Source of the DNA: a virus | UHGV virus genome: UHGV-1558314 | Reading direction: 5' to 3' (one strand) | Length of the DNA stretch: 64,000 bases | Shown here: one piece after another, positions 25,283-53,800 of the stretch | Numbering within the stretch: position 1 is the stretch's first letter | Layout of the letters: each line of letters begins with the position of its first letter | Notes under the pieces: generated by a model | The model's input: only the letters and a program-made list of their open reading frames with translations | What the model was told of the DNA's origin: nothing | The model's database searches: none | Program-made: the position numbers and the translations under genes

Positions 25283-25322
25283 TTTATGATATTGTTAAGA
25301 TATCTACAAAAAGCAATGCACT

Positions 25323-25619
25323 CTACAAAAAGCAATGCACCATAAAACCCAAGAACATAATTATTGCAGGCTGCATGATGCAATACATAAAGAACTGTGC
25401 AGCAATCGGCAATTCATTGAACTTGTTGACTGTGTCATGATTCTTGAACAATGCCAGTACAAATGATATCCCAATTGCATGCTTAAGCGATAACGCAGTC
25501 AATGCGGGCCACACAGGCATCACAAACCACTCCCAGAAGTTCATAATAATGCAGCCATTCAGAATATAGCCTAACAGCATGAACATAATGCATGCAACAG
25601 TTGTCAGAAAGTTTTTCAT
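25323..25619 (-). CDS. small membrane protein (holin-like topology; speculative)
   Basis: 98 aa, about three hydrophobic helices. Confidence 0.4.
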   Translation of the reverse strand: MKNFLTTVACIMFMLLGYILNGCIIMNFWEWFVMPVWPALTALSLKHAIGISFVLALFKNHDTVNKFNELPIAAQFFMYCIMQPAIIMFLGFMVHCFL

Positions 25620-27136: not shown

Positions 27137-27616
27137 TTATTCATTATCGTCATCATATCCCATGCAATCTTCAAGACTTGCAAAGTCATCATCAAAGTCA
27201 TCGAATTCAGGCTCTTTATTGCACCATTTGTAAGGTGGATTGTTGAGCAATTCAAGCTCTATTGCATTTGACTGTGCAGAAATCGGAACATATTCGAATG
27301 CTTCGACTGACATATCAAATTTGATGCAATGCAGCCACGGAAACATATCAGTGTCCTCATGCACAATGGGCTGACGAACGTAGTCTTTCATTGCAATGAA
27401 CTTGCTGCTGTTGTCCCAGTCTTCAATAGGAATTTCAAACTGTGATATGGTCGTATGACAATCGTCAAAGAAATTGCAGGATACGCCTACAATAACGTGC
27501 GTGTCTGTACGTTGACGTTCTATTGCAAGAAAGTCGTGTTTCTTGGAAAGATGAACTTCTCCATGCTTCTCTAAAAAGATTTTAAGAAGCTCTTTGTTAA
27601 TGTCATTGATATTCAT
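27137..27616 (-). CDS. hypothetical acidic protein
   Basis: 159-aa ORF with Asp/Glu-rich C-terminus. Confidence 0.4.
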   Translation of the reverse strand: MNINDINKELLKIFLEKHGEVHLSKKHDFLAIERQRTDTHVIVGVSCNFFDDCHTTISQFEIPIEDWDNSSKFIAMKDYVRQPIVHEDTDMFPWLHCIKFDMSVEAFEYVPISAQSNAIELELLNNPPYKWCNKEPEFDDFDDDFASLEDCMGYDDDNE

Positions 27617-27638
27617 TGCTGTAGAGATTTTATGATGT

Positions 27639-27950
27639 TTAATACTGAGTTTTTGCAGATATAGCTACTTTAATTGCTGCTTTAATTTGTTCGATTGCAT
27701 CTTGTGAGAACAATTCTGGCACTGCTAAATAGTGATACCATGATGTTGGCGCTGCCTGCATATCAGTTCGTTTAATTGCGAACCGAAGTTCTTTTGGTGA
27801 ACCAAGGCAACCCATATATTGGCAGCTTATTAGCTTAACTTGCACATTGTTAATGCTGCTATGAATAGCAAGATGAGACAGATTTATTCTGTCATAGAAT
27901 TTTAGATGCTTGAGTTGTTTTTCAATTGCTTTGAATGCGTTTGTATTCAT
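27639..27950 (-). CDS. hypothetical protein
   Basis: 103-aa ORF; last minus-strand gene before the plus-strand cassette. Confidence 0.4.
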   Translation of the reverse strand: MNTNAFKAIEKQLKHLKFYDRINLSHLAIHSSINNVQVKLISCQYMGCLGSPKELRFAIKRTDMQAAPTSWYHYLAVPELFSQDAIEQIKAAIKVAISAKTQY

Positions 27951-28015
27951 TGTTGTAGAGGTTTGTATACTATATTGATATATGATAATTGTACTACAAA
28001 TTTATCAAATTTGCA

Positions 28016-28133
28016 CTGATTTAATATATAATATGTCAATAAATTTCACATATAAAGTCTTTTCGCTTATGAAAACTACTCAACTCTGGTTTGAACGCCA
28101 GCAGTCAATCGCGGGGGGGCTCTTCGTGACACA
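28016..28133 (+). repeat. promoter/leader module, copy A (inverted partner at 31048..31160)
   Basis: About 113-118 bp near-identical to the reverse complement of 31048..31160, with 2-3 mismatches/indels by eye in the upstream part; contains ATG 28069 and G7 tract. Confidence 0.8.
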
Positions 28134-28185
28134 GGCATGCGCATATACGTGCGTGACAATGCTGATAACATTGTTAATGGGCTAA
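28069..28185 (+). CDS. leader ORF (MKTTQLWFERQQSIAGG...) containing a G7 tract; overlaps 28137..28769 in the -1 frame
   Basis: ATG 28069; G7 at 28113-28119; stop at 28185. The frame of 28137..28769 is open from 28095 (TPAVNRGGALRDTGMRIY...). Confidence 0.4.
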   Translation: MKTTQLWFERQQSIAGGLFVTQACAYTCVTMLITLLMG

Positions 28186-28769
28186 CTTGCTATTTGCACT
28201 GTATTGAAACAGGTCGAACACTTCAAAGAGACTTGCACACAAGCAATAATGGTGATGGCGTCACATTTTACATAACTGGTGATGACTATAAGCAATTAGT
28301 CGGCTCAACAAAAGACGCACAATTTTATCTTATTGACACGCCTGATGCTGCAGATATGTCTTGGTCATCTGCAGCATTTACACTTAGATATGGCGCAGAT
28401 ATAGTTAACAACACACTAAATGTCAATATTGAAGCGTTCAAATCATGCGAAGTAACAATAACTAACAGTGGCAATACATGCAGTTGCACCGCAATGCTTG
28501 AATCTGCATTGCCAGTGGCAATTAAACTGTCAACAATTTGCAATACATCAGTAGCATCTAATGTCGATGTGTCAGTTAACATAGCTGCAAATAGCTTGAC
28601 TGCTAATTTTAGAGTTGGCAATAGCTTATCTGCAAAATTGACGCATGTCGGCATATGGTCTATTGCTAATGCTTCTTATGTTTCACCAATATATGAGGGT
28701 GCTATAATTGTGAAAACACTGAACGACATATTTCACGTGTTCATAACAGATAAGACAACACTTGGCTAA
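28137..28769 (+). CDS. cassette protein 1 (210 aa), Ser/Thr/Asn/Val-rich; function unknown
   Basis: ORF on the rare plus strand, directly after conserved leader copy 1. Confidence 0.55.
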   Translation: MRIYVRDNADNIVNGLTCYLHCIETGRTLQRDLHTSNNGDGVTFYITGDDYKQLVGSTKDAQFYLIDTPDAADMSWSSAAFTLRYGADIVNNTLNVNIEAFKSCEVTITNSGNTCSCTAMLESALPVAIKLSTICNTSVASNVDVSVNIAANSLTANFRVGNSLSAKLTHVGIWSIANASYVSPIYEGAIIVKTLNDIFHVFITDKTTLG

Positions 28770-28804
28770 GTGTACATATCTTACAACATTCAAACATATA
28801 GCAT

Positions 28805-28858
28805 ATGAAAACTCCACAATTTTGGTTTGAGCGTCAACAAGGGCTAGCGGGGGGGCTC
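28805..28858 (+). repeat. diverged third copy of the leader module
   Basis: atgaaaactccacaattttggtttgagcgtcaacaagggctagcgggggggctc versus copy A; upstream part not conserved. Confidence 0.6.
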
Positions 28859-28861
28859 TAA
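28805..28861 (+). CDS. leader ORF copy 2 (MKTPQFWFERQQGLAGGL*) with G7 tract
   Basis: ATG 28805; G7 at 28849-28855; stop TAA at 28859-28861; about 75 percent nt identity to leader copy 1. Confidence 0.3.
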   Translation: MKTPQFWFERQQGLAGGL

Positions 28862-28898
28862 ATTAGTCTACCTGCAACTTGTTATTGGCGACGCTTCG

Positions 28899-29327
28899 TT
28901 GTACAACTTTGGCACTACTGAAACAATGGCGATACAAGGTACAATATCGCTTGACAATGTCACAGTTAACATACCAACGTCAGGCTTTCCTATCAAAATG
29001 ATGGAATGCCGCGGTGGTGAAACTCATGCAATTGGTGCGTTAATGATGCCAAAAGCTTATGACTACTCAAACTTTGCTGCAAAAATTGGTTTTGGCTGCT
29101 ATGCAGCAGATGGTCGTGGCACTGGCAACGTTTACAACATCAATGTGTATGCCAACATTAACAACACAAGCCCTGGTGGTAATCCCATACTGTTAACTTC
29201 TATGGCATGGCAATATCCATTAGGCGTTGGTGATAAGCTTACATTGCCAATGTCAAATCCATCTGTCAAAGTTAACAATGGAGATATCGTGTCAATCATA
29301 CTTAAGAATGCAAGGAAAGTCAGCTAA
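28899..29327 (+). CDS. cassette protein 2 (142 aa; ATG start probably at 28926)
   Basis: ORF-track start is TTG at 28899; in-frame ATG at 28926 (MAIQGTISLD...). Frame is +1 relative to leader copy 2. Confidence 0.5.
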   Translation: MYNFGTTETMAIQGTISLDNVTVNIPTSGFPIKMMECRGGETHAIGALMMPKAYDYSNFAAKIGFGCYAADGRGTGNVYNINVYANINNTSPGGNPILLTSMAWQYPLGVGDKLTLPMSNPSVKVNNGDIVSIILKNARKVS

Positions 29328-29351
29328 CTGACAGATGCATCACATATAAGC

Positions 29352-29390
29352 AATGCTCCACTGAGAAATCTCAGTGGAGCATTTTTTGTG
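29352..29390 (+). terminator. rho-independent terminator between convergent genes 28899..29327 (+) and 29412..29822 (-)
   Basis: 14-bp stem aatgctccactgag / ctcagtggagcatt, loop aaat, then TTTTGTG on the plus strand. Confidence 0.65.
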
Positions 29391-29411
29391 CTGTTTGGCA
29401 ATTTTAGACAT

Positions 29412-29822
29412 CTATATGCTATAGTATGCCCTATTGACAAGCAACACATAGTCACCACACAGTAATGCAGCGTACGACATCATGCAATCATCTTGCGGCG
29501 CACTGACATCTGCATATCCTTTTGCGTACATAACCATGTTGTTGTGCACAAAGTCAACTTTAGCATTTGCATAAATTGCATCAGTGCCACGGTCAACTAT
29601 AAATGATTCACCGCGTTCAAGCGCATTTGCATTAATTGTCACGGTAGATGTACCAGCATTAATGCTGTACAATGTATTTGGCACAGCATTAATGCTGGTA
29701 CTTGATACCGTCATAAACTTAGCAGCAAATATGCTATCAACCAAATCACCAAATTGTGCTGAGGTGGGTTTATCTCCGGTTTCAAAATACGTTTTGAGTA
29801 CCGAACGTGTTTGAACTGCCAT
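29412..29822 (-). CDS. cassette protein 3 (136 aa)
   Basis: Convergent with the plus-strand genes; upstream short ORF (29957 down to 29841) carries another G7 tract. Confidence 0.5.
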   Translation of the reverse strand: MAVQTRSVLKTYFETGDKPTSAQFGDLVDSIFAAKFMTVSSTSINAVPNTLYSINAGTSTVTINANALERGESFIVDRGTDAIYANAKVDFVHNNMVMYAKGYADVSAPQDDCMMSYAALLCGDYVLLVNRAYYSI

Positions 29823-30017
29823 ATGTTTCGATGTTTTAAGTTATGCAATGTGACATGAAAGCAACACTGCAAACTTTTCATCGAATGCAATGTCACCTAC
29901 GTTATAACAAGAGATTGAGCCAGATATGTGACCCCCCCAATTCAATTTGAATGTCATAAAGCTTATGAGTTTGTAAATGTTTGTTTTGTTTATATATTTT
30001 GACTGCCCATATGTACA

Positions 30018-30094
30018 TATCAAAACAACATCTTAGTTGTTTTGCATCTTGCATCAAAACAACATCTTAGTTGTTTTGCATCTTGCATCAAAAC
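30018..30094. repeat. tandem direct repeat, 34-bp unit x2.3, each unit with a 9-bp-stem hairpin
   Basis: tatcaaaacaacatcttagttgttttgcatcttg / catcaaaacaacatcttagttgttttgcatcttg / catcaaaac; internal inverted repeat caaaacaac-atctta-gttgttttg. Confidence 0.8.
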
Positions 30095-30269
30095 TCATAG
30101 GCATTGCATTCAAAGATGAAGATTTTACAGCAGACATTGCACTTGATAACGCGTCATTTTATGATGGCCAAACTGCATGGCTAACTGGAAAGCTTCTGGC
30201 AGCATTGTGTTAAGTATAAAACAGTTACATTGAAAGCTAACACAACAGTAAACATCGCCATTTAATGCA

Positions 30270-30315
30270 CATCAAAAACTCCACTGAACAATTAAGTTCA
30301 GTGGAGTTTTTGATG
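30270..30315. terminator. bidirectional hairpin terminator downstream of gene 30332..30985
   Basis: catcaaaaactccactgaac-aattaa-gttcagtggagtttttgatg; stem flanked by A5/T5 so either strand reads hairpin plus U-tract. Shares core CTCCACTGA with the 29352 hairpin. Confidence 0.6.
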
Positions 30316-30331
30316 TGTAGTGTGCAAAATA

Positions 30332-30985
30332 CTACAACATATTCCAGTTTGTTATGTCATACATGTTGAAGCTGAACGCTGATGTGATGTATCCAAGAGT
30401 AGTCAAGATGTCCACACCAACTACAGGGTCATTTGCAATAAGCAAAATACAGTTAGTGACAGACGTATCGACCATATTGTCTGCTTGAAAATCATTGTGC
30501 ATCAACCAGTCAGCAAAGCAGATGTCATAGTACACAGGATTGCCTGCAAATACTTTATCATTTCCAAATGCTTCTGATGGGTGCGACAATGTAGATGCAA
30601 GCAGTTGAATGTCTTCATCTGTGCAAGACGATTTAATGTCATCAAGCACAATTGCTACACGCTGCTCATTTGTCTCTGAATCACCTCTATGAATTTCATG
30701 AATCCAAGGCAAGCATGCAAGTGCATCACCACATGTCAAATTGACATTATCAAGTGTCTCGCCTTGACCTGCGTAGCAATATAAAGTGGAGCCAGTGCCA
30801 TAACGTAGACAGTCATTTATGCTGACATTATCAAGATACACTGAACAAATTGACAATGCACCTGCACCAAGCCTGTTTGCAGGAATTGTCAACTTATATG
30901 TTGGCACGCCATTTGACTGCACTGTAATAGGCGAGCCCGCTAATAATTCACCAGTGTCAGCATCATAGCATTCGACTTCTTGCAT
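30332..30985 (-). CDS. cassette protein 4 (217 aa)
   Basis: Preceded by leader copy 3 (ATG 31110, G7 at 31066-31060 on minus); gene frame is -1 relative to leader and open through the tract (TPAVNRGGALRDTIISGT...). Confidence 0.55.
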   Translation of the reverse strand: MQEVECYDADTGELLAGSPITVQSNGVPTYKLTIPANRLGAGALSICSVYLDNVSINDCLRYGTGSTLYCYAGQGETLDNVNLTCGDALACLPWIHEIHRGDSETNEQRVAIVLDDIKSSCTDEDIQLLASTLSHPSEAFGNDKVFAGNPVYYDICFADWLMHNDFQADNMVDTSVTNCILLIANDPVVGVDILTTLGYITSAFSFNMYDITNWNML

Positions 30986-31047
30986 AGTCGCATATGCAGC
31001 TTCAAGTAGTGAACCATCTGCTTTGTTGATAGTGCCGCTGATAATAG

Positions 31048-31160
31048 TGTCACGAAGAGCCCCCCCGCGATTGACTGCTGGCGTTCAAACCAGAGTTGAG
31101 TAGTTTTCATAAGCGAAAAGACTTTTTGTATGTGAAATTTATTGACATATTATATATCAG
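31048..31160 (-). repeat. promoter/leader module, copy B (inverted partner of 28016..28133)
   Basis: Reverse complement reads ctgatatataatatgtcaataaatttcacatacaaaaagtcttttcgcttATGaaaactactcaactctggtttgaacgccagcagtcaatcgcgggggggctcttcgtgaca. Confidence 0.8.
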
Positions 31161-31171
31161 GCAGCAATATG

Positions 31172-31210
31172 CACAAAAAAGAAGAGCATCGGTTAAAAAC
31201 CGATGCTCTT
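31172..31210 (-). terminator. rho-independent terminator after BACON-like gene 31259..31873
   Basis: Stem aagagcatcgg / ccgatgctctt, loop ttaaaaa; minus strand continues CTTTTTTGTG. Confidence 0.55.
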
Positions 31211-31258
31211 TCAAGTTCTGCTGTGAACTGTTCAATAGTGTAATCTTGTTGTACTCGA

Positions 31259-31873
31259 TTACGATACAGTCCACGGGCAGTTTGCGGTAACCGTAACCGT
31301 AACGGCAGGAGTACCGGCCTGAGGAATCGTGATTTCCTGCTTGTCGAGTACCAGCGTCGGGTCACCAGCAGCCTGAACGATTGCAATCTGAGCAGTCTGG
31401 GCACCGTTGGCAGTTACCAAAATCGATGTCGTGCGCTCGTTAATCGTCAAGTTGGCAGGAATGTCAAGCTCAATGCTGAAAGCAAACTCGGCGTTGGCAC
31501 CAGGGTCACCAGTGATTGCTACGCCATTGTTGGTTTCTACACCAGCAACTGCGTACTTTTTAGGCAGTTCGATAACAAACTCGCCGCCCTCAACGATGCT
31601 GAACGTCAGCTTCGATGAGTTAGATACACCGGTTACGGTAAGAGTACCGCCAGCTTTAGGAGCTGACATCTCTGAGCCGTTGTCAAATGACACGAACTCA
31701 GCCTTTGCAGTCTGCTGTACATTGTACGTTGAAGGCGCTGCAATACCAGCACCCTGAACGGTTACAACACCAGTACGTGCAATACGACCAGTGTGGGCGT
31801 CAGCAGAGTTGGAAATTGAACCATTACCCGAACCAGATGTCGGGCTAAGTTTCAACCATGCGGGTTTAGCCAT
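31259..31873 (-). CDS. BACON-like domain protein
   Basis: N-terminus MAKPAWLKLSPTSGSGNGSISNSADAHTGRIARTGVVTVQ fits the BACON pattern (W..s..sGsG.g......R.a.itv) as recalled from memory; paralog of the two downstream genes. Confidence 0.5.
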   Translation of the reverse strand: MAKPAWLKLSPTSGSGNGSISNSADAHTGRIARTGVVTVQGAGIAAPSTYNVQQTAKAEFVSFDNGSEMSAPKAGGTLTVTGVSNSSKLTFSIVEGGEFVIELPKKYAVAGVETNNGVAITGDPGANAEFAFSIELDIPANLTINERTTSILVTANGAQTAQIAIVQAAGDPTLVLDKQEITIPQAGTPAVTVTVTANCPWTVS

Positions 31874-31931
31874 TGTTCAAAATTGTTATTAAGTGAGTGT
31901 ATATGTTTAACACAAATTCGATGATTGCTCA

Positions 31932-32531
31932 TCAAAGAATTTTCCAAGAAGCGTTTGATGTCAAATTCATTGTGATTGTCGTGCCATCATCATCAACTGT
32001 CACAGATTCTGTACTCAGCACAAGAGTTGCTGCAGCAGCTGCTTGAGTAATGCTAACATTCAATGATTTGCCACCAGGAGTTGTCACTGTCAATACAAAT
32101 GATTTCTGTTCAATTGTCAAATTTTGCGGTATTGTAGCTTCAATTGACCATGCAAACTTTGCAATATATCCAGGGTCATTTGCAATTGCTGTGTCATTTG
32201 TTGCAGCGACGCCATTTGCTGTGTACGCAGTCGGAATGCTAAGATTCGGATTTGTAGTTGCAAACTTAAGTTTTGCTGCGTTAGACTCACCAGAAACAAC
32301 AATTTTTGTGGTTGCCGCAGAAACATTGTATGATGTTGTGCCAGATACAAATTCTGCAAGAGCAGCTTGGTTGATTGTTGCTTGCTTTGTAACTGTTGGT
32401 GTGGTCTTCGTTTGCACAGTCGCAATTGTGCTACGAATGCCTCTGCCGGTATGAGCTCCTGCAGTAAATGCCAGGATATCATTACCCTCACCAGACATTG
32501 GTGAACACTGTGCCCATATAGCTTTTGCCAT
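31932..32531 (-). CDS. BACON-like domain protein
   Basis: MAKAIWAQCSPMSGEGNDILAFTAGAHTGRGIRSTIATVQ; ends with ...NVSITQAAA. Confidence 0.5.
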   Translation of the reverse strand: MAKAIWAQCSPMSGEGNDILAFTAGAHTGRGIRSTIATVQTKTTPTVTKQATINQAALAEFVSGTTSYNVSAATTKIVVSGESNAAKLKFATTNPNLSIPTAYTANGVAATNDTAIANDPGYIAKFAWSIEATIPQNLTIEQKSFVLTVTTPGGKSLNVSITQAAAAATLVLSTESVTVDDDGTTITMNLTSNASWKIL

Positions 32532-32602
32532 TGTTACTGTGCAATTTTTAATTGTTTGACATGATATTTATATGCATTGCTTAAGCAATGTTGAATTGAC
32601 AT

Positions 32603-35600
32603 TTATCGAACAAGGAATGATGTACCAACAACCATATTCGGGATTGCCAAGCCATTGCCAGACTGGCTTACTGCAACTGTGCCACTTGTGTAGCCTGACA
32701 ATGCAGCAGTAATTGTTGCCGACCTGCTGTTATCTGAACCCCAGTTGTTTGCAGCTGACAATGTCGAACCGCTGATTGTGAATGCACCATTGTTCGATGA
32801 GTACGTTGGAGTAACCGCAGCATCTGATGTTGTAGACTGACCTGTCGTGTACTTTGTGACAGTTCGACCTGTCGTAGACAATGTTGCAGTGCCACCAGCA
32901 GCCCCAAAGCTTGTAACAGTTGAGCTGACAATCAGAGTCTTCGTAGTCGAAGTCACACTGTTGGCTTCCTGTGTAGCAGTGATTGCTTTTGAGCCAGTTT
33001 GACCATTCAACGCAACCGTCATATTGACTGTAGCGGTTCTTGCAGAACCAGCAGTTGTGCCACGATTTGCAGCAGTCAATGAACCGGTTGTACTACTGTT
33101 AAGCGTAAAGCCAGTAGTTGTAGCCATACTGTATGAAATTGTACCGCCAGATGTAATAGTAGTTTTTGAACCACTTGTGTACGTTGCTGTCTGCGAGTAT
33201 GCTGGCGTGCCTGTTGGAGTCTTTGTTGCACCTGCTGCAGCAAATGTTGCATATGATGTTGCTGTAGTAACTGTGACTGCGCTGTATGATACACTGTTAG
33301 CTGCTTGATAAACATCAAGAGCTTTTGTAGCAGTCTTAGACCCTTCACCAGTAGCAGTTGCAGTCAAAGTGCCAATCTTTGTACGAGCTTTGACTGTAGT
33401 GCCAAGCGATGATGCGCTGACTTTTGTGCTATACGCAATGCTAACTGAACCTGGCCTTGTGCTGCCAGACGTATATGTAATTGTCTGTGATGCACTGATG
33501 CCAGACATTGATGCAACTTCACCGCCACCAGCAGGAATATCTGACACAGTTCCACCAGAAATTGTAACCGCGCCATATGTCGTAATTGCATTTGCAGCTT
33601 GGTACACATCGACTGCTTTTGTTCCAGATTTGCCATTGACTGTTACTGTAACAGTAGATGTTGTAATCTTTGTGCGGGCTTTAGCAGTAGTGCCAAGTGA
33701 ACTACCAGACACTGCGCCAGTAGACGTTGTTACACCAGTGCCAGACCATGATTTGCTGCCACCAGACGTAACTGTCTGTGTTGAGCCACTTGACCACATA
33801 ACTGATTGACTGAATGACACTGAAGGCGTAACTGAGCCACCCTTTGCAGGAACATCGCTATAAGTCATCGAAACTGTGGGCGTACCATATGTAGCAGCAT
33901 TAGCATTTTGAGATGCAGTAGCAGTCTTTGTTCCACTGATGGCTTTTGTGCCTGCAGCATTGTATGACGCAGTAGGCGTCCATGTAGCTGTTACAGTCTT
34001 TGTGACTGTCAGCGATGTAGTTGCGCCACTTGCAGTAGTGCCTTTTGATGATGCGGTTATAGCACCAGTAGATGTATTGAGTGCAGTGAACAATCCTGAT
34101 GCGCCTGGCCAACTATATGATGTTGTAGTTGACAATGAACCATACGTAGATGCTGGCGCAGTAGTTGAAGTACTGCCACTACTAAAATGGTATGTTACTG
34201 TGTTTGCACCATTTGACGGTGTAGATGTTCCGCCACCTGCAGCAATTGCAGGATATGACATCGAACCAACTGCAATATTGAGTGCAGTCACATAGTTGCC
34301 TGCCTGATAAATCGTGGCAGACTTGCTGGCAGATTTGCCATTCATTGTGACTTTAACAGTCAGTGTGCCTGCAGTAGTCTGGTTAGATATTGCGGTGTCT
34401 TTTGATTGCGCAGTGACTGTTGACGTATACTCAATTGTTCCGCCGCTTGTCAGTGTTTCTGTCGTCTTTTCACCAGTAGCATATGTCGTAGTTTTGACCT
34501 GCGAGTAAGTTACTGTGCCAGATTTTACAGAACCTCCGCTTGCTGCAATGATAGTTGCAGACGGCGTCAAGTTAACTGTGATATCGCTATATGTAACTGT
34601 GCCAGCAGATTGAGCTGCTTGATAAACATCTGCAGCTTTTGATGCAGACTTGCCATTGAGTGCTACTGTGACAGTCAATGTGCCAATCTTTGTTCGTGGC
34701 TTAACTGTTGTGCCAAGTGATGATGCAGTGATACCTGCTGCTGGACTGTATGAAATTGTTGCACCAGTAGTGATGTTCTGTGTTGAAGTTGATGTGTATG
34801 TTGCAGTCTGCGAATATGACACATTGCCGCTCTTAATTGTACCACCAGTTACAGGAATATCTGCTACAGTGAAGCTTGAAATTGTAACTGCGCCATATGA
34901 CACAGTGTTTGCAACTTGCTTGACTGTGCAAGAACCAGTTTTTGTAACACCGCCCTCAGTATATGAGCCAGAAATTGTAATGCTGCGTTCTGCGCCTACG
35001 ACTGTTGTGCGATTTGCTGCAGTTACTGTAGCAGTCGACAATGTAAAGCCAGTTGCTGAACCGCTAAGTGTTGCAGATACTGCAGCAGATGACGTTGAGC
35101 CTGATGCATATGTGTATGACGCTGTTGAAGTGATTGTAGTTGAACCGCCACCAGCTGCCAATGTTGCAGCGCCAGGTGTCAATGTCAAGCCATTCAGCGT
35201 CTTTGAGTTTGCAGTTTGTGTTGCAGTAGCAGTTTTTGTAGCAGACTTGCCATTGATTGCTACCGTAACTGTGACAGCATTTGAAGCATCAGTAGAGCCT
35301 ACATATGATGTGCCCATTGACGTTACAGTCAATGCGCCACTTGTCGTATTCAATGTCCAGCGTGACTTAGCAGTCATTGCATAAGACAATGTAGCGCCAC
35401 TTGTCAATGTGCCACCTGAGCCAGCTACGCCATTCCAAGTCCAAACTTGTGAATATGAAACAGTTGGGTTTGATGTACCACCAGCAGGAGCAATGTTAGC
35501 ATATGAGAATGTTCCAATGACAGGCGTTGCATAGACTTTAGCACCTGCAGCTTGGTTGAACGTAATATCTTTTGATGCAGACTTACCATTTGCAGTGACT

Positions 35601-36931
35601 GTCAAGGTGACAACAAACCCATTACGTGCAACAGTAGAATTGTTGTTTGTCACTGTGACATTCAAGCCAGACAAGCTGTAGCCTGTTGCAGCAGTTTTGA
35701 CGGCAGCAGTCCATATGCCGCCTGACGTGTTACTATCAGTTGAGCCGCTGCTGTATGTCATTGACTGCGTAAATGTTGCAGATGCATTAGCTGCAACAGT
35801 TTGACCTGCTACTGCAAGAGCAACTGGTGTTGTCTTTGTAATGACTGGTGTGCCGTATGTAATGCTGTTGGCTGCTTGTGTAATTGATACAGTAGCAGTT
35901 GCATTGCCATATGACGCTGTGCCGCTAAATGACCGAGCATCACCGACAGTCTTACCACGATTTGCAGATGTTACAGAATTTGCAGATATTGTAAAGCCTG
36001 TTGCAGTGCCTGTAATTGTTGGCTTGACATTTGTTTCAGTAGATGTAACAACACCGTTCCATGTCACAGTGTACGTACCAGTGATGGTTGATGTTCCACC
36101 TGCTGCAGTATGACTTGTTGAATATGTGTTCAAAGCAAGTTTGTACACAACTGAACCTGCAGCTTGTGAGCATTTAACGGTCTTCGATAATTCATGACCA
36201 CTTACAGTCAGTGTTGGTGTAACTGCTGCAGTTGACGTGTTGTTCGGTGTATTGACAGTGATTGTTGCAGGACCTGTGCCAGATGCTTTTGAGACTGACC
36301 AACCTGCAGGTACGCCCGAAATTGTCCATGCAAAGTCAGGATTACAAGAAATTGCGAATGTCTTCGATTCACCCTTTGCAACAAATGACAAAGTTTCTGG
36401 TGATACTGCCAATGTTGCACTTGCACCAGCTTGATTTACTGTAAATGTTGCAGACTTGCCACCAGGCGTTGACAATGTGAAAGTGAATGCCTTTGCAGCG
36501 ATTGCAGTATGTGCAGCAATCTGCACTCGTACAATGACTTCAAATTCTGCATTGACACCAGGGTCATTGTCAAAATTTGTATTAAGCGCATAATCTTTGC
36601 TTGCAACAGTTACGCCAAGCACTGTGCCACTTGCAGTACCGCCAGTACTGCCAAGCACAAGTTTTTGTGCATTTGTGACACATTTCAATGTTGCAATAGT
36701 GCCACCATTTGACGCAATGTTTGTAGATGCAACTGTAGCTCGTATAGTTTCACCAGGAGACTCTTGCAATACTGCACAGTTTTCAGTTACTACTGGTGAA
36801 CCTGTAGTTGTTTGCGCAGTAAAGCTGCCAGACCTGTTATTTCGACCAGTATGCACAGATGCTTTGACAGACAACTGTGAGTTGCCTGTGCCAACATCAG
36901 GTGTAACTGTCAACCAAGTAGGCTTTGCCAT
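32603..36931 (-). CDS. giant Thr/Ser-rich repeat protein with N-terminal BACON-like domain and many tandem Ig-like repeats (probable fibre/adhesin)
   Basis: N-terminus MAKPTWLTVTPDVGTGNSQLSVKASVHTGRNNRSGSF; repeated ~90-aa units ending NGKSASK....YQAAN. Confidence 0.6.
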   Translation of the reverse strand: MAKPTWLTVTPDVGTGNSQLSVKASVHTGRNNRSGSFTAQTTTGSPVVTENCAVLQESPGETIRATVASTNIASNGGTIATLKCVTNAQKLVLGSTGGTASGTVLGVTVASKDYALNTNFDNDPGVNAEFEVIVRVQIAAHTAIAAKAFTFTLSTPGGKSATFTVNQAGASATLAVSPETLSFVAKGESKTFAISCNPDFAWTISGVPAGWSVSKASGTGPATITVNTPNNTSTAAVTPTLTVSGHELSKTVKCSQAAGSVVYKLALNTYSTSHTAAGGTSTITGTYTVTWNGVVTSTETNVKPTITGTATGFTISANSVTSANRGKTVGDARSFSGTASYGNATATVSITQAANSITYGTPVITKTTPVALAVAGQTVAANASATFTQSMTYSSGSTDSNTSGGIWTAAVKTAATGYSLSGLNVTVTNNNSTVARNGFVVTLTVTANGKSASKDITFNQAAGAKVYATPVIGTFSYANIAPAGGTSNPTVSYSQVWTWNGVAGSGGTLTSGATLSYAMTAKSRWTLNTTSGALTVTSMGTSYVGSTDASNAVTVTVAINGKSATKTATATQTANSKTLNGLTLTPGAATLAAGGGSTTITSTASYTYASGSTSSAAVSATLSGSATGFTLSTATVTAANRTTVVGAERSITISGSYTEGGVTKTGSCTVKQVANTVSYGAVTISSFTVADIPVTGGTIKSGNVSYSQTATYTSTSTQNITTGATISYSPAAGITASSLGTTVKPRTKIGTLTVTVALNGKSASKAADVYQAAQSAGTVTYSDITVNLTPSATIIAASGGSVKSGTVTYSQVKTTTYATGEKTTETLTSGGTIEYTSTVTAQSKDTAISNQTTAGTLTVKVTMNGKSASKSATIYQAGNYVTALNIAVGSMSYPAIAAGGGTSTPSNGANTVTYHFSSGSTSTTAPASTYGSLSTTTSYSWPGASGLFTALNTSTGAITASSKGTTASGATTSLTVTKTVTATWTPTASYNAAGTKAISGTKTATASQNANAATYGTPTVSMTYSDVPAKGGSVTPSVSFSQSVMWSSGSTQTVTSGGSKSWSGTGVTTSTGAVSGSSLGTTAKARTKITTSTVTVTVNGKSGTKAVDVYQAANAITTYGAVTISGGTVSDIPAGGGEVASMSGISASQTITYTSGSTRPGSVSIAYSTKVSASSLGTTVKARTKIGTLTATATGEGSKTATKALDVYQAANSVSYSAVTVTTATSYATFAAAGATKTPTGTPAYSQTATYTSGSKTTITSGGTISYSMATTTGFTLNSSTTGSLTAANRGTTAGSARTATVNMTVALNGQTGSKAITATQEANSVTSTTKTLIVSSTVTSFGAAGGTATLSTTGRTVTKYTTGQSTTSDAAVTPTYSSNNGAFTISGSTLSAANNWGSDNSRSATITAALSGYTSGTVAVSQSGNGLAIPNMVVGTSFLVR

Positions 36932-42446: not shown

Positions 42447-44057
42447 TCAACATTCTACATACGAGCCATCAGTGTTTTCAACAAGCACTTTGATGCTCAA
42501 GCCCACATCTGTGCCTTGCTGACTTCTTATCAATGGCACAATGTTTTTTGATTGTGGTGCAATGTTGCCCATATTGTCAATGTGCTCGTCATTGCCAATA
42601 AACTGTACATCCACTGATTTGATGACATCAAGCTCTTCAAGTTTTGCAATTGCAGCAGAACGACTAACGAATGTCGATGCATTTGACCATGAGTCTTCTA
42701 CAAATGTTTTTGCAGCATCAAGCAATTGCTGCTTGACGTCTTCTATATTTTGCAGTACTGCGGTCTTTTTGACAAGAATGAGCATCTGATAAAATTCAAG
42801 TTGCACAGTGTCAAATTGTACATCAGTTAGCAGCACATAGTCACCAGTGTTTTCAATAGCATTGTTCAGATATTGTCTATCTATAGAGTCAATCGTAAAT
42901 TCTGCTATTGGCAATGACCAGTAGTCATACACTATTGAGCCTGCTTTGACATACTTGTCTGCAATGTTGGGCACCAGTACAACATGAATTGTCTGAGTCT
43001 CTGTATTTGACCAGACATCAAGTATCTTATACTGGCCAAAACGTGACATGAATGCTCTGATTGAATCTGCTGAGTGCAACACAAGTGCCCTGTTAATTGA
43101 GCCTGCATGTGAACGTATCGATTCGATGTCTTCACCATTGTAACCACCTACAATGTCTGTCAACTGTTCAATGACTAATACACCCTTTGGGCTTACAGCA
43201 GTAGTGTTTGCATCATACATGCCATTGACCCATTCAAATGTTGCATCATTGTCAATCAAAATGTTTCCTGCATAGCCCTCACATGCAGTGTATTCTACAT
43301 TGACGACTGCATTTTGTGCAGGAATTTGACCAGCAGTACCATTGCCAAACACAATCTGTAGTTTGCCATCATATGACCAGCGTTCAATGTACCCCTTGCT
43401 GTATCGGTCCATTTCATCAAACCCTGCATAGCAAGTCCACAGCTCATTGCCAACTGTGACAGTCAATGAATCCTCAGACACAATCAAGTTGCGCTCTTCG
43501 ATAGTGAATGTTGTCATTGACTCACCATCAGAAATATATTGCTGAGACTTGCGTTCACCTTGTCTAACTGCGAATTCATATCGTACACCCGTCAACTCAT
43601 TGTTGATGTTGAGTTGCGCAAAGTCTTGATGCATGTCGATGTAGTACATCAGCGAGTTCTCTTTGCATTTAATTGCAGCATATCGCTTAATGAACACAGT
43701 CGGGCCAAGCTCTTTAACTGCGTCATATGAAAAACTTAATGCAATTTTGCCTGATGCTGCAATGCCACCAACACATTTGTAGCATGCAAGCTGCGCAAGA
43801 CCTCGTACAGATGCAGTTTGTTCTGCAGTAAGCAAGTTGTTTTCTTTTGTGCCTACTACAATTTGCGTAAAGATGAGTGACGCAAGTTCTCTGAAACTCT
43901 GAACAAGAATTCCAAAAATTGTATATTTGCCATACTGCTTCTTTGTAGAGTTCAGCAAATTCTGCAGCCAAGTATCTATAGACTGTGACACGCCTGAATA
44001 TGACATTTGCATTTTCTGCATCCATGTCATATTGTCACGAGTGTTATTTGTGCGCAT
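42447..44057 (-). CDS. hypothetical protein, probable virion protein (start trimmed to ATG at 44057)
   Basis: ORF-track N-terminus (to 44159) reads through a 30-bp tandem DNA repeat (CAHSKRxIL x2); first plausible ATG downstream is M35 at 44057. Confidence 0.45.
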   Translation of the reverse strand: MRTNNTRDNMTWMQKMQMSYSGVSQSIDTWLQNLLNSTKKQYGKYTIFGILVQSFRELASLIFTQIVVGTKENNLLTAEQTASVRGLAQLACYKCVGGIAASGKIALSFSYDAVKELGPTVFIKRYAAIKCKENSLMYYIDMHQDFAQLNINNELTGVRYEFAVRQGERKSQQYISDGESMTTFTIEERNLIVSEDSLTVTVGNELWTCYAGFDEMDRYSKGYIERWSYDGKLQIVFGNGTAGQIPAQNAVVNVEYTACEGYAGNILIDNDATFEWVNGMYDANTTAVSPKGVLVIEQLTDIVGGYNGEDIESIRSHAGSINRALVLHSADSIRAFMSRFGQYKILDVWSNTETQTIHVVLVPNIADKYVKAGSIVYDYWSLPIAEFTIDSIDRQYLNNAIENTGDYVLLTDVQFDTVQLEFYQMLILVKKTAVLQNIEDVKQQLLDAAKTFVEDSWSNASTFVSRSAAIAKLEELDVIKSVDVQFIGNDEHIDNMGNIAPQSKNIVPLIRSQQGTDVGLSIKVLVENTDGSYVEC

Positions 44058-44083
44058 ATCAGTTAATTTGTTTGTATATGTAT

Positions 44084-44160
44084 TCGAATGTGCACACATG
44101 AGAATAGGTCTCTTCGAATGTGCACATATGAGAATAAGTCTCTTCGAATATGCGCACAAA
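44084..44160. repeat. tandem direct repeat, 30-bp unit x2.5
   Basis: tcgaatgtgcacacatgagaataggtctct / tcgaatgtgcacatatgagaataagtctct / tcgaatatgcgcacaaa. Confidence 0.8.
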
Positions 44161-44188
44161 AAGAAGAGCTTGCATATGCAAGCTCTTC
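44153..44188 (-). terminator. rho-independent terminator after gene 44231..44614
   Basis: Palindrome gaagagcttgcatatgcaagctcttc followed on the minus strand by TTTTTGTGC. Confidence 0.55.
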
Positions 44189-44230
44189 CATCGCCAAAAC
44201 CTATCTAATTATGGAAACACCTCTGAAAGG

Positions 44231-46987: not shown

Positions 46988-47884
46988 TTACAGTGTTCCG
47001 CAAAGCAATTCACGTAAATCCATGCCGGCTTGTGTACTGTACTGAGCAATAAGATTACGTTCTGAATCAGACATACTCCAATAAATCTTATGCAGAGCTC
47101 TACGAATAATAGTATGAATGCCAGATGTGCTACAATTGAACTTCTTTGCAAGTTCTGCATGAGTTAACAAATCAGCATCGCCAAGGCCATACACATGTGT
47201 GAGTACAAGCTTTTCATTTTGAGTGAGTTGTTCAAATGCTCTTTGCAGAATCTTTGTGATACGTTTGTGAGCATCTTCGATTTCAAGAACTTCTTGGCCT
47301 GTTTTGAAGTCTGACCTCAAATCATTCTGAACTGGTGACCATGCGTCACCATCTTTGTCAAGTGTAGTGTCATCCTTGCTGATGAATTGCTTGCCTTCAA
47401 GAGCTCTTTCATATGCTCCACGAATACCAGTAGATAATTGTTGACTTGTCAGATTGAGTTCGTCAAGCACATATTTCTTAATCCAAGGATATGCATATGT
47501 GCTAAACTTTGCTTCACGAACTCCTGCAGGCAATACGCCTTCTACGTAATTCTTGGCTGCTATTGACAATCCAAGATTGCCTGCTTGAATGACGTCATCA
47601 AATGGAACCGAGCGTTTGCCAGATGCGAACCATAAGCTTCGTGCAACTGATATGACCAATCTTAAACAAGATTTGATAAGAGCTTCACGATTTTCTTGAG
47701 TCTTCTTGAATCGAGTAACATCACAATATCGCTTTGCAGTAGCCAGCGATTTGACTTCTTCAGGAGTAAGCTCATTCTCCATCCTCATTTGCTTGAGCTC
47801 TTCCTTTGTGTATAGACGTTCTCTTGTGATTCTACCTACGTCCTTTACGTAGCCTTGATTGATTTGTGAATTTGAACCTGCCAT
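46988..47884 (-). CDS. sigma-70-family RNA polymerase sigma factor
   Basis: Region-2-like LRLVISVARSL...FDDVIQAGNLGLSIAAKNY; region-4 helix-turn-helix LTQNEKLVLTHVYGL...LTHAELAKKFNCSTSGIHTIIRRALHKI. Confidence 0.75.
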   Translation of the reverse strand: MAGSNSQINQGYVKDVGRITRERLYTKEELKQMRMENELTPEEVKSLATAKRYCDVTRFKKTQENREALIKSCLRLVISVARSLWFASGKRSVPFDDVIQAGNLGLSIAAKNYVEGVLPAGVREAKFSTYAYPWIKKYVLDELNLTSQQLSTGIRGAYERALEGKQFISKDDTTLDKDGDAWSPVQNDLRSDFKTGQEVLEIEDAHKRITKILQRAFEQLTQNEKLVLTHVYGLGDADLLTHAELAKKFNCSTSGIHTIIRRALHKIYWSMSDSERNLIAQYSTQAGMDLRELLCGTL

Positions 47885-50895: not shown

Positions 50896-53800
50896 TTATC
50901 GTACGATGAATGGCTTGTTGGTATCTTCAATAATCATTGAGCCAATGCCATGCAACTCTTGAGTAACCTCGACAGATACGTCTTGTGCAGTGTTGTACGA
51001 GCACTTGAATGCTGCAACTCGACTAAATGCGTCAATGTCTGAGTAACTGAGTTCATCGACTTGCATTGAGATTTCACCAATTGCTGGCGTAGTCTTTGAT
51101 GGCGTAATTGTGATGTCATGCAGCCAACCCGGATTGCCAACTATGACTGCTGTCAATGATTCGCCATCAATAGGATTGACGATTTCATAGTTGAAGTTTA
51201 GTGTCTTTGCAGCATCATCAGTTGTTGCTGATGCAGGTGTAATGTTGATTGTTGTTACGCCTTTAGCAGCTTGAACAACTTGTGCAGTGACATCTTGAGC
51301 ATTGATGTGAGAGAACTTAACTGAGCAGCTACGTTGTTCTATCGTTAAGTTGCGGTCACATTCAATAGTCAAGTAGCCCTTGCCAGTATTGTCATCGTAT
51401 TCGAAGTTTGTGTCAGTAAATGTGCCGTCATTATCAAGAACTTCATATGACAATTGCTGCCCTGCAATTGGATTACTAACAGTGATTTCGAATTGTGCTT
51501 GAGTGTCAGTTGACTTCAATTGAGCATTCATTGGCTCAACAATTATCATTGATACACCTTGAGCTGCTTGTGTGATGCTGACCGTTACATTGTCAGCAGT
51601 CATGTATGACAGTCTCAAGTATAAGTTACGAGTAGCTGTTGCAGTGTTGATGTCAAGCGCAAATTGTATTGTGCCAGCTGACATGTTTACTGCAGGTTCG
51701 CCAACAAAGCCAGAGCCCTCTGCTGTAACTGTTAATGTTTCGCCTTCAATAGGATTAGTGATGCTAAAGTTAACTGTGAACGAACCGCCATTAGCTGCTG
51801 CGTTGATTGTCAATGGTTCAGCATTGATGACTGTAGCTTCTTTAGCTGCTTGAGTAAGCAATACTGCTACATTGTCAGCAGTTGGATATTGCAGTACAAT
51901 ATTTGCTGTACGAGCAGTTGTTTGCAATGTCTTGTCATAATCAAATGTAATCTTGTCATCAGCAACTTGAACGTTGTGAATCCAACTTTCTGTAGCATAT
52001 GCAGTGACTGCTGCACCAGCAAAGCCATTACGAATTTGATATGCAATTTCAGCTGAACCACCAGCTGCATTAAGTGACATAGAGCTTGTGACAATGATTT
52101 CGGGTCTTGTTGAAACACCTGTGCTGTATTGAACAACAGAAGCTATTACACGAGGCTCAAATATAACAGCATTTGCAGAACCGCCAAATGTAGGTGTTGC
52201 AATCACATAGATTGGCCAAACTCCACTTGATGCGACATTACGTAAGATTGCTTGATAATGCAGTTCATTGCATGCATCTTGCAATTCACTCCACGTTTTT
52301 GTAGTGTCAATTGATGTCAAGCATGCTGGCAATACTGCGCATGTTGATGGCTTATCAGCATCAATTTGTGTTGCAGCACCACCTGATACTGGTCTGTAAC
52401 TCAAGTCGACTTTAACAGATGCATAGCCATTGCCATACACAATAAATGGCACTGTGATATCGAGCAAAATATCTACAGTTGCAGGCATGTTCAGATATGC
52501 TGGCAGTGGTACAAGCGTTTGCATTGCTGTCGTGCCTGGCACATGGTCATCGAATGATTCAACATACACAGGTGGTGTCAAGTCATCTTTATGCGCATAT
52601 TCTGCATGAGTGTGGTCTGAATGTGATACTGTGCTTGCATAACCAGACCCAGCAAAGTCTTTATTGAATGCAGACTTCTTTGCTTCTTCAGTCAATCTGC
52701 CGGAGCCATCATATGTCAGCACAGTATTTGATGAGCCAATACCTGCCGCAAGATGATTTGAGCCATCAATGAAGACATGCTTGTATTGACGTTCAAACAA
52801 ATGAGCATCAAAATTGTCAAATATCGAATTGAACAACTTTTTGACTGCAGATGCTGTAGGCAGATGCTTGTTTGCATTTGCGCCATCGATAATGATGCTT
52901 GACCAATTGTCTGAGCTCTTGAAGATGCTAAGAAGCATATCAACAACTTTGCCAGTAGCATCTGTGCCAAGAACACTTGCACCGGGCAGTTTCATCAATT
53001 GCAAGTCGACTGTTGCAGCAAGTTTAAGCAACTGCTTTGTCAATGTCAGAATGTCTGTGACAACTCCAGCATCTGACAATGCTGCAATGCGATATGACTG
53101 ATTGATGAGTTGCGCAAACTTATATGCACGAATGAATGACTCTCGCTTTGCTTCTGCATCCAAGCCTTTTGCCAAGAACAACTCATCATATTTCAGATTT
53201 GCATATGACAATATGTCAAGCTCATTGACTGCAGATGTAAAATGATTGCGAAGTCTAATGCCCTCATATGACTGCCACAATGCAGCCAAATCAGCAAATG
53301 ACTTGACATGTGAATCATCTGATGCAAAGCCAAATACAAGACCACTGTTAAAGTCATTTTGCAGCAGCATATGCGGAAAAGCATCAATGCCTGGCAACTG
53401 ATTCTTTTTGTCTGCATCAAGACGATTCAGTGTTCGTTGTGTGAGGTCGTAATAGTAATATGGATTGCCCAATATCTGCATAACTGGCTTTGCTACTTTG
53501 TTGTTTGCATTGCCAAGTCCATCGATTTGTGTATCACTCGGTGCAAGCAGAATAACTGAGCTGTCAACGTTATTGTATCGAGGCACGCTTTCAAGCCCTA
53601 TTGACAACGCACCTGTATGCTTGTTTGAGTAGTTGTTGTCGATTTCTGCGCCAGGCTGCCCGTCTGCAGCAATGTTGAACATTGCTGCATATGACTTGAT
53701 TGTGCCGCCATACTTTGTTTTGATGAGCTCTTCAATGATTTGCGTAATGATGACATTCAAGTTATCATTGTCACTTGTCAGCAATTGCAAGCCCGTAAAT

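Follow-up and report, generated by a model that had tools for sequence, protein, structure and literature searches.

A 34-nt tandem repeat in a large uncultivated phage is one allele of a hypervariable minisatellite beside polyG cassettes

A 64,000-nt stretch of the virus genome UHGV-1558314 (hereafter the window, numbered from its first letter) carries a short array of perfect 34-nt tandem repeats with hairpin potential, located among small genes with runs of guanines near their starts. What is this array, and what might it do at this position? The original prediction, made from the letters alone, had offered an iteron-like origin of replication or a regulator array. Comparison with related genomes identifies the 34-nt repeat as one genome's allele of a hypervariable, recombination-prone minisatellite, i.e. 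a variable-number tandem repeat (VNTR). The reading that we favour, at roughly even chances, is a variable-number repeat in a bidirectional control region between the phase-variable polyG cassettes of a phage contingency cluster. The source is a large uncultivated phage (about 175 kb) whose baseplate is of the contractile-tail type, and the array is found at the distal end of its baseplate/fibre module.

Tandem Repeats Finder (TRF) returned a single array at 30019-30094 with a period of 34, 2.2 copies, 100% matches and a score of 152, the highest in the window. A repeat search gave two identical 34-nt copies at 30019-30052 and 30053-30086. The two perfect units ATCAAAACAACATCTTAGTTGTTTTGCATCTTGC are followed by an 8-nt partial unit; the array thus stands much as originally described, except that its start had been placed one base early (30018) and its copy number is 2.24 rather than 2.3. 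Each unit contains, as had been proposed, a 9-bp stem, here closed by a 6-nt loop (CAAAACAAC/ATCTTA/GTTGTTTTG; palindrome 1 at 30021-30044 and the identical palindrome 2 at 30055-30078). Three of the nine stem pairs are G-C and the rest is A/U-rich. Both hairpins are present in the minimum free energy and centroid folds of the RNA of either strand and of the DNA, with z of about -3. The hairpin 24-mer matches the window at 30021 and 30055 only, with up to 3 mismatches allowed, where shuffled sequences lead one to expect 0.00 matches. For perfect 9-bp hairpins the window yields 28 hits, distributed over about 13 loci that are for the most part terminators; Markov-1 simulations yield about 5. 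One perfect 9-bp hairpin alone is unremarkable; duplication and conservation in relatives make the array hairpins non-random. A second symmetric element, the 22-nt core GTTTTGCATCTTGCATCAAAAC, is located at 30039-30060 (core 1) and, identically, at 30073-30094 (core 2). Its ends are inverted hexamers, 10 bp apart, and its centre holds the heptamer TTGCATC twice.

The array is confined to one place. Neither further copies of the repeat (up to 3 mismatches) nor of the core were found in the window, and the motif is present at a single locus in a 174.6-kb relative. The core pattern matched nothing among genome contigs, and among metagenome contigs it gave only an already known contig from ENA. 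A dispersed element of the repetitive extragenic palindrome (REP) or bacterial interspersed mosaic element (BIME) kind was rejected on these grounds, and CRISPR-like and tRNA explanations were likewise rejected. The surrounding gap, 29823-30331 (509 nt), is indeed the largest on a crude gene map of open reading frames (ORFs) of at least 70 aa. The description "gene-free" needs qualification, as the gap encloses a strong bidirectional terminator (30268-30317), a promoter-like element and a short leader ORF with a polyG tract. That tract (29932-29938, - strand) is the fourth G7 run of the region and lies downstream of the array on its own strand, in agreement with the prediction that the array is located upstream of it.

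Further evidence comes from relatives. Records of this phage population include ERZ27261429, ERZ27240671, ERZ19289331, SRR16279997 and IMG 3300045988. A hairpin-sequence search identified an IMG/VR contig of 174,628 bp whose locus flanks are 93-95% identical to the window, and further contigs were found via homologues of protein D, the product of the - strand cassette D on one side of the array; the window's relatives are contigs of about 175 kb. Eight alleles are readable, the window included, and seven of them are complete, with flanks at about 87-95% nucleotide identity. The arrays are mosaics of 34-nt and 28/29-nt units, two to five per allele. Read from the side of cassette E, a divergent cassette present in most relatives, towards cassette D, the unit lengths in nt are 34,34 in the window; 34,34,34,28,28* in L001; 34,34',28 in L039; 28,34(loop flipped),28 in L040; 29,28,28,34,34 in L041; 28,34',29 in L043; and 34,29 in L045. 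The incomplete allele L036 reads 28,28,34 up to the contig end and matches none of the others over its readable part. All seven complete alleles are mutually different, and measured from the first core up to the palindrome that abuts the array on the D side they extend over 73, 163, 101, 95, 158, 96 and 68 bp. Two contigs assembled from short reads, L035 and L036, stop within the array.

What these units share is the 22-nt core, common to both unit types and to all alleles, including the second, 28-nt type ATCAAAACTCAAAAGTTTTGCATCTTGC. Among about 26 units, the hexamers GTTTTG and CAAAAC hardly vary. In L040 (3727-3760 of ENA ERZ27240671 k141_226777) the loop of a 34-nt unit is reverse-complemented, CAAAACAAC-ATCTTA-GTTGTTTTG, where all other alleles have TAAGAT in that orientation; this suggests a hairpin- or palindrome-mediated template switch or inversion. 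By comparison, 31 IMG/VR loci of other phage contigs (5-49 kb, locus GC 30-62%) encode the same KTYFETGD-type N-terminus as cassette D and have neither array nor polyG upstream of that gene, so that the feature is lineage-specific.

The main rival to a role in gene control is that the array is a neutral by-product of slippage, i.e. a minisatellite derived from the duplicated leader region of cassette E (ATCAAAACTCA motif), the copy number of which drifts with expression unaffected, whatever spacer separates the two cassettes being tolerated. The perfect identity of the window's copies suggests a recent duplication, every complete allele differs, and the substitutions that break stems are uncompensated. 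The E leader contains TCAAAAACTCAAnTCA twice in tandem, and the 28-nt unit begins with the same motif. That intergenic duplications are not rare in this genome is indicated by an unrelated 30-nt tandem duplication at 44083-44158. Still, drift does not readily account for an array kept in 8/8 alleles, including two devoid of cassette E, nor for the near-invariance of the two hexamers. In addition, the array is situated directly upstream of the -35 candidate of cassette D and about 30 nt from the start codon of E, so a change in length is unlikely to be wholly without transcriptional effect. We therefore consider the neutral explanation possible, if on the doubtful side.

The second tandem repeat deserves description in its own right. 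It comprises 2.5 copies (89%) of a 30-nt unit TGCACATTCGAAGAGACYTATTCTCATRTG and lies between a terminator hairpin (about 44163-44190) and a ACATATACAAAC motif upstream of a baseplate-wedge gene. The order of terminator, repeat and promoter-like motif is alike at 44083-44158 and at the 30-kb array, while the unit sequences differ. A perfect direct duplication of 19 nt (TCTACAAAAAGCAATGCAC, two copies) was observed at 25303-25340.

On the D side, the array is abutted by a perfect 12-nt palindrome ATATGTACATAT at 30009-30020. It contains TGTACA (30017-30012, - strand), a -35-like hexamer, and 17 nt downstream lies the -10-like hexamer TATAAA (29989-29994, - strand); together they would form a candidate promoter of cassette D. 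A regular-expression search over the alleles showed that the palindrome and the arrangement TGTACA-N17-TATAAA are kept in 7/7 complete alleles. The array starts at about -36 of this arrangement. The D leader (ATG..AAYTGGGGGGG..) follows downstream, and then the D start codon, about 110 nt on. Among the phage's own proteins is a sigma-70-family factor that has regions 2 and 4 (46988-47884), which makes promoters of the -35/-10 type plausible.

On the other side, the divergent cassette E is present in six alleles, and in 6/6 its start codon (MQIPRNWGG..) and the first core are 28-30 nt apart. As the array leaves so little room (about 30 nt) before the start codon, the E promoter would have to be located in or beyond the array. 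The window and L036 are without cassette E. Their sequences diverge exactly at the array edge, with a different right flank in each; the right edge of core 2 is the point of divergence between the window, L001 and L036. Three structures are thus found to the right of the array: an orphan spacer and terminator in the window, cassette E in L001, and a direct transition into the terminator of cassette C in L036. Judged from these junctions, cassette E looks to have been lost twice independently, by deletions or replacements ending at the array. The orphan spacer of the window (30095-30267) occupies the position of the relatives' cassette E and includes the open tail of a + strand ORF (30037-30213); BLASTP of 30100-30213 gave no significant similarity, and a truncated homologue of cassette E was rejected. 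The adjoining bidirectional terminator (30268-30317), downstream of cassette C, has 22-nt arms with 100% complementarity, a 6-nt loop and a T-run on both strands. It has a stem motif, CTCCACTGA, in common with the other strong bidirectional terminator at 29352-29383. In L001 and L036 a different hairpin, GACTCAGCAATATTGCTGAGTC, is present in its place, and terminators accordingly travel with their cassettes.

Such junctions invite the view that the array is a recombination site or hotspot for the exchange of cassettes, with crossover at its palindromic units, whose 9-6-9 or 6-6-6 layout is that of tyrosine-recombinase core sites. The three structures diverging at the array edge would fit this view, as would the unit with a flipped loop and the mosaic make-up of the cluster, namely the B leader swapped at its polyG tract in L038, tandem D paralogues in relatives, and fragments of the D N-terminus in L038. 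However, illegitimate events of the slippage type would produce deletions ending in a repeat just as readily. Pfam and PHROGs recognised no recombinase domain, whether of an integrase, an invertase or another kind, in the roughly 40 larger window ORFs scanned, a survey that does not cover the about 110 kb outside the window. Cassette exchange needs one site per cassette, whereas the motif occupies a single locus in the 174.6-kb relative and is missing from the other cassette junctions (A/B, D1/D2). The absence of a recombinase from the scanned ORFs and of the motif from those junctions also led us to reject a tyrosine-recombinase core site or attC-like element, and we regard a recombination site in general as unlikely.

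A further possibility is an element acting in RNA, either as a tandem insulator or terminator between C and D, or as structured modules in the 5' untranslated region of the E mRNA that affect stability or translation. The hairpins fold in both orientations, the array directly follows the C terminator in L036, and the array would form the leader of an E transcript begun on the D side. Against this, the stems are A/U-rich and have no U-run outside the stem; the terminator scan gave no call for them, yet it called the real terminators at 29352-29383 and 31182-31210. With neither a G+C-rich stem nor a T-run, an intrinsic terminator was rejected. A cmscan search of 27500-31500 with permissive filters gave no Rfam match on the array, only sub-threshold miRNA-like matches on the terminator hairpins, and an Rfam family was rejected as well. 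The 28-nt units have a stem of 6 bp only, and three unit variants break the stem without compensation (GCTG in L039, GTTA in L043, CAAATC in L001), indicating that the hairpin as such is not visibly under selection. A role at the RNA level is, on this evidence, improbable by a wide measure.

The origin of replication proposed at the outset fared worst. An iteron-type origin would bind an initiator at the dyad-symmetric repeats beside an A/T-rich unwinding stretch, as in the lambda ori. Such a stretch of about 45 nt (29960-30005) does adjoin the array in the largest non-coding gap, giving a superficial likeness to that origin; the promoter-like TATAAA region of cassette D falls on the same stretch. 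The cumulative GC skew, however, falls across the whole window, is negative on both sides of the array and has no inflection there. A local rise at 31-37 kb corresponds to a 1442-aa Thr/Ser/Ala-rich BACON gene, and a similar rise at 50-52 kb overlies another BACON gene. Nor is there a switch in gene orientation: nearly all window ORFs are on the - strand on both sides of the array, the exception being two short + strand cassettes. Unit number, type and spacing change between near-identical genomes, and the window has only 2.2 copies. The array is located inside a tail accessory cluster, no Rep/O/DnaA-like initiator domain was detected in the roughly 40 ORFs scanned, and the T4-like replication proteins (gp32-like protein, helicase, SbcCD-like protein) are encoded 9-28 kb away, with gp32-like protein and helicase at 9-11 kb. 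The original prediction had itself named a copy number that varies in relatives, together with a skew lacking an inflection, as speaking against it, and both are what we observe. An origin at this site is accordingly extremely unlikely. The regulator array, its other proposal, survives in a changed form. The fixed position of the array in a putative bidirectional control region supports it, and a regulatory effect may follow from that position.

The genes on either side give the control-region reading its content. G7 runs occur four times in the 64 kb, against an expectation of 0.02, and all are found within 28.1-31.1 kb. There, four small cassettes (28.0-31.2 kb) are laid out as A> B> terminator (29352-29383) <D <C. 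Cassettes A (28069-28769, + strand) and B (28805-29327, + strand) each have a G7 tract and are out of frame in the window. Cassette C (30332-31110, - strand) begins with the leader MKTTQLWFERQQSIAGG, has its G7 at 31060-31066 and continues as a 217-aa body in another frame. The same conserved start peptide, followed by G7 and a long ORF resuming in another frame, is found in A, B and C alike. In each cassette the polyG tract lies 20-50 nt after the leader ATG, and tract lengths range from G6 to G11 across the window and its relatives. A is in frame in L041, giving 233 aa, with the tract interrupted to GGGGGTGG. A variant of B (B') is in frame in L038, giving 165 aa behind a different leader swapped at the polyG tract. 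For E, the tract is G9/10/10/10/11/11, and the full 118-aa ORF results with the G9 of L001 only. Cassettes A, B and E thus occur naturally both in frame and out of frame, while C (G7 or G6) is out of frame in 6/6 alleles seen. Taken together, the polyG cassettes look like a phage contingency-gene cluster with five small tail-accessory cassettes, A to E, each gated through its polyG tract.

Cassette D departs from this scheme. Its leader is a short ORF of 38 aa (29841-29957, - strand; MTFKLNWGGH...) with the polyG tract at 29932-29938 and a stop 17 nt before the start codon of the D gene (29412-29822, - strand; 136 aa). Across seven complete alleles the tract is G7/8/9/9/10/10/10, and no frame fuses the leader to the D ORF (window, L001, L039-L045). 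G7 or G10 gives a short ORF of 38 or 39 aa ending 17 nt before the D ATG, and G8 or G9 places the stop about 60-70 nt earlier. This pattern suggests phase-variable translational coupling rather than ORF fusion.

An inverted repeat of about 110-134 nt (28024-28132 and 31047-31157, 97% complementary) brackets a 2.9-kb segment of the cluster. In cassettes A and C it takes in the upstream region, the leader ATG and the G7 tract together with the 13 nt that follow. An invertible segment was considered and rejected, since the orientation is the same in the window and in every relative, among them L038 with L002 and L041, and no invertase was found. The cluster of the 174.6-kb relative exceeds that of the window in size. 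At the end of IMGVR_UViG_3300045988_152288 (L038, 7203-8721), an extra 333-aa lipoprotein-like repeat protein has an in-frame G8 just past its signal peptide. L038 also holds two degenerate fragments of the coding motif for the D N-terminus, and at the start of the same contig (L001, 1-120) a second D-type gene runs off the contig start; tandem D paralogues are present in relatives. This 174.6-kb contig begins and ends within the cassette cluster, i.e. its assembly breaks there. Searches beyond these relatives were negative: the leader pattern AACAAGAGATTGAGCCAGATATGTGAC had no match in metagenome contigs, exact look-ups of the 217-aa and 204-aa proteins retrieved no record, and a related-locus search with a 307-aa neighbour protein returned nothing.

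Protein D provides the link to the baseplate. An AlphaFold (AF2) model built from 37 homologues reached a predicted local distance difference test score (pLDDT) of 88.7 and matches the N-terminal adaptor domains of CBA120 TSP4, T4 gp9 and T4 gp10. On the strength of this model, cassette D resembles a gp9/gp10-like baseplate adaptor. Two contigs of 50-200 kb encode an exact copy of protein D. The first 34 residues of the family (MAVQTRSVLKTYFETGDKPTSAQFGDLIDSALMA) are almost invariant and the remainder is diversified, the pattern expected of interchangeable modules attached to a baseplate. The wider setting includes a PHROG match to a baseplate wedge (42447-44159), BACON-domain proteins at 31259-36931, where the 1442-aa BACON-repeat gene is located, and at 50896-54303, and a set of replication and nucleotide-metabolism genes (gp32-like protein, helicase, SbcCD-like protein and dCMP deaminase) at 1.8-21.7 kb, of which gp32-like protein and helicase lie at 18.9-21.7 kb. 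Megablast of 27-33 kb against INPHARED phages gave no match, family matches are few across the window, and PHROGs and Pfam searches of the four cassettes and their neighbours yielded nothing useful except BACON.

With D and E in place, a mechanism for the variable-number repeat in a shared control region can be outlined. Replication slippage or unequal recombination, with hairpin formation as an aid, would add and remove units. As its start lies at about -36 relative to the candidate D promoter, the array would occupy the zone of an UP element or a class I activator, and with the E promoter in or beyond the array it would constitute either the promoter region of E or its 5' leader. A change by 28 or 34 bp (with 6-bp phase shifts) could then affect promoter geometry, the number of dyad sites, or how long the E leader is and how it is structured, and the array would act as a third heritable, reversible switch atop two polyG tracts. 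A bolder version holds that a shared bidirectional promoter is reset when 28/34-nt units are gained, lost or flipped and that, with the polyG tracts, this makes a compound locus choosing baseplate/fibre adaptors stochastically. We find this version doubtful; if true, it would be a long-unit, promoter-level phase-variation device, undescribed so far for any virus.

Several observations weigh against a control function. The candidate promoters are guesses at the level of a consensus. The relatives are all close (about 87-95%), and the shared position may reflect common descent. The array persists in the two alleles without E, so that a role confined to E cannot explain its retention. The short, A/T-rich stem of the 28-nt units and the uncompensated stem-breaking variants belong here as well. 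Furthermore, inspection of the units revealed no convincing promoter for E, whether sigma-70-like or of the Bacteroidetes type, and a search with the Bacteroidetes promoter consensus TAnnTTTG revealed no site near the array. Finally, the array unit scores 9.3 (rank 19) on a position weight matrix (PWM) of a recurrent intergenic motif, (TTTTG)CATGTTGTACAATAT, compared to 23-45 for the instances from which the matrix was made. This similarity is too weak, and the units were rejected as promoters of that kind.

The recurrent motif itself is present in ten copies, all on the - strand and upstream of gene blocks (at about 5818, 9595, 9625, 15306, 15328, 15359, 21800, 21835, 50753 and 50799), often two or three in tandem at 22-46 nt from one another. 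It is probably an early or middle promoter or operator of the phage. At its centre lies a palindrome, TTGTACAA, with a relationship to the palindrome ATATGTACATAT beside the array.

What, then, is such a locus worth? The repeat alone is an intergenic VNTR, a familiar kind of sequence, and the surrounding polyG cluster is the more interesting part. The value of the repeat lies in its use as a marker and as a possible component of a dense phase-variable cluster with ON, OFF and locked-ON alleles and rapid cassette turnover. If unit number does tune the divergent promoters, phages would combine translational (polyG) with transcriptional (VNTR) bet-hedging in host recognition. It should also be noted that the array and the repeated N-termini break short-read assemblies, and such loci are hence probably under-represented in viromes.

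Among known systems, promoter-proximal contingency repeats offer a close comparison, of which Haemophilus influenzae has an example in TA repeats where the divergent hifA/hifB promoters overlap, and Neisseria meningitidis another in TAAA repeats that precede nadA. Shared traits are a tandem repeat of polymorphic copy number in a control region, here a putative one, divergent genes, genes for surface or host interaction, and other hypermutable tracts. The differences are that the units here are 28/34 nt long and arranged in a mosaic, as opposed to 1-8 nt, that the carrier is a phage and not a bacterium, and that an effect on expression is here suggested by position. Variable tandem repeats as regulators have been reviewed in general (PMC3899988).

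For the neighbouring tracts, the nearest phage parallels are the hypermutable polyG tracts in receptor-binding genes of Campylobacter Fletchervirus (Sorensen et al. 2021, Cell Rep 35:109214, as cited in PMC10877375) and the contingency loci of T2/T4 (Gomez, Barrick, Waters, bioRxiv 10.1101/2025.10.21.683753). The cassettes beside the array likewise have 5' polyG tracts of variable length, in-frame and out-of-frame states, and a place in a tail or host-recognition module. This comparison extends to the neighbouring tracts and not to the 34-nt array, and the lineage is unrelated (BACON proteins, no INPHARED match). A long-unit intergenic VNTR appears nowhere in abstract and reference-list passages of the Fletchervirus and T2/T4 contingency-locus papers.

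Lambda-type and plasmid iterons have in common with the array direct repeats, internal dyad symmetry, an adjoining A/T-rich stretch and a non-coding gap. They differ in that the present locus has two copies, is variable in number, spacing (28 vs 34) and order, lies in a late structural module, and comes with neither an initiator gene that we could find nor a change in skew. The Mu G and P1 C segments are invertible tail-fibre segments (van de Putte 1980, cited in PMC12823448). As in those segments, two convergent pairs of alternative tail-accessory genes (A>B> terminator <D<C) are enclosed by an inverted repeat, here of 134 nt and including a shared 5' coding end. In contrast, no invertase was found, the orientation is constant in the window and three relatives, switching apparently proceeds through polyG, and the 34-nt array has no counterpart there.

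The mycobacterial interspersed repetitive unit (MIRU)-VNTR loci of Mycobacterium tuberculosis are intergenic minisatellites employed for strain typing. They resemble the array in having intergenic units of tens of bp, a copy number different in almost every isolate, and broken short-read assemblies; here, by contrast, there is a single phage locus whose units contain a palindrome and a dyad-symmetric core and are flanked by polyG leaders. Phase-variable repeat copy number has also been treated for M. tuberculosis (PMC12817950). The element behaves both like promoter-proximal contingency repeats and like typing minisatellites, and it is a phage example of an intergenic VNTR at a phase-variable locus.

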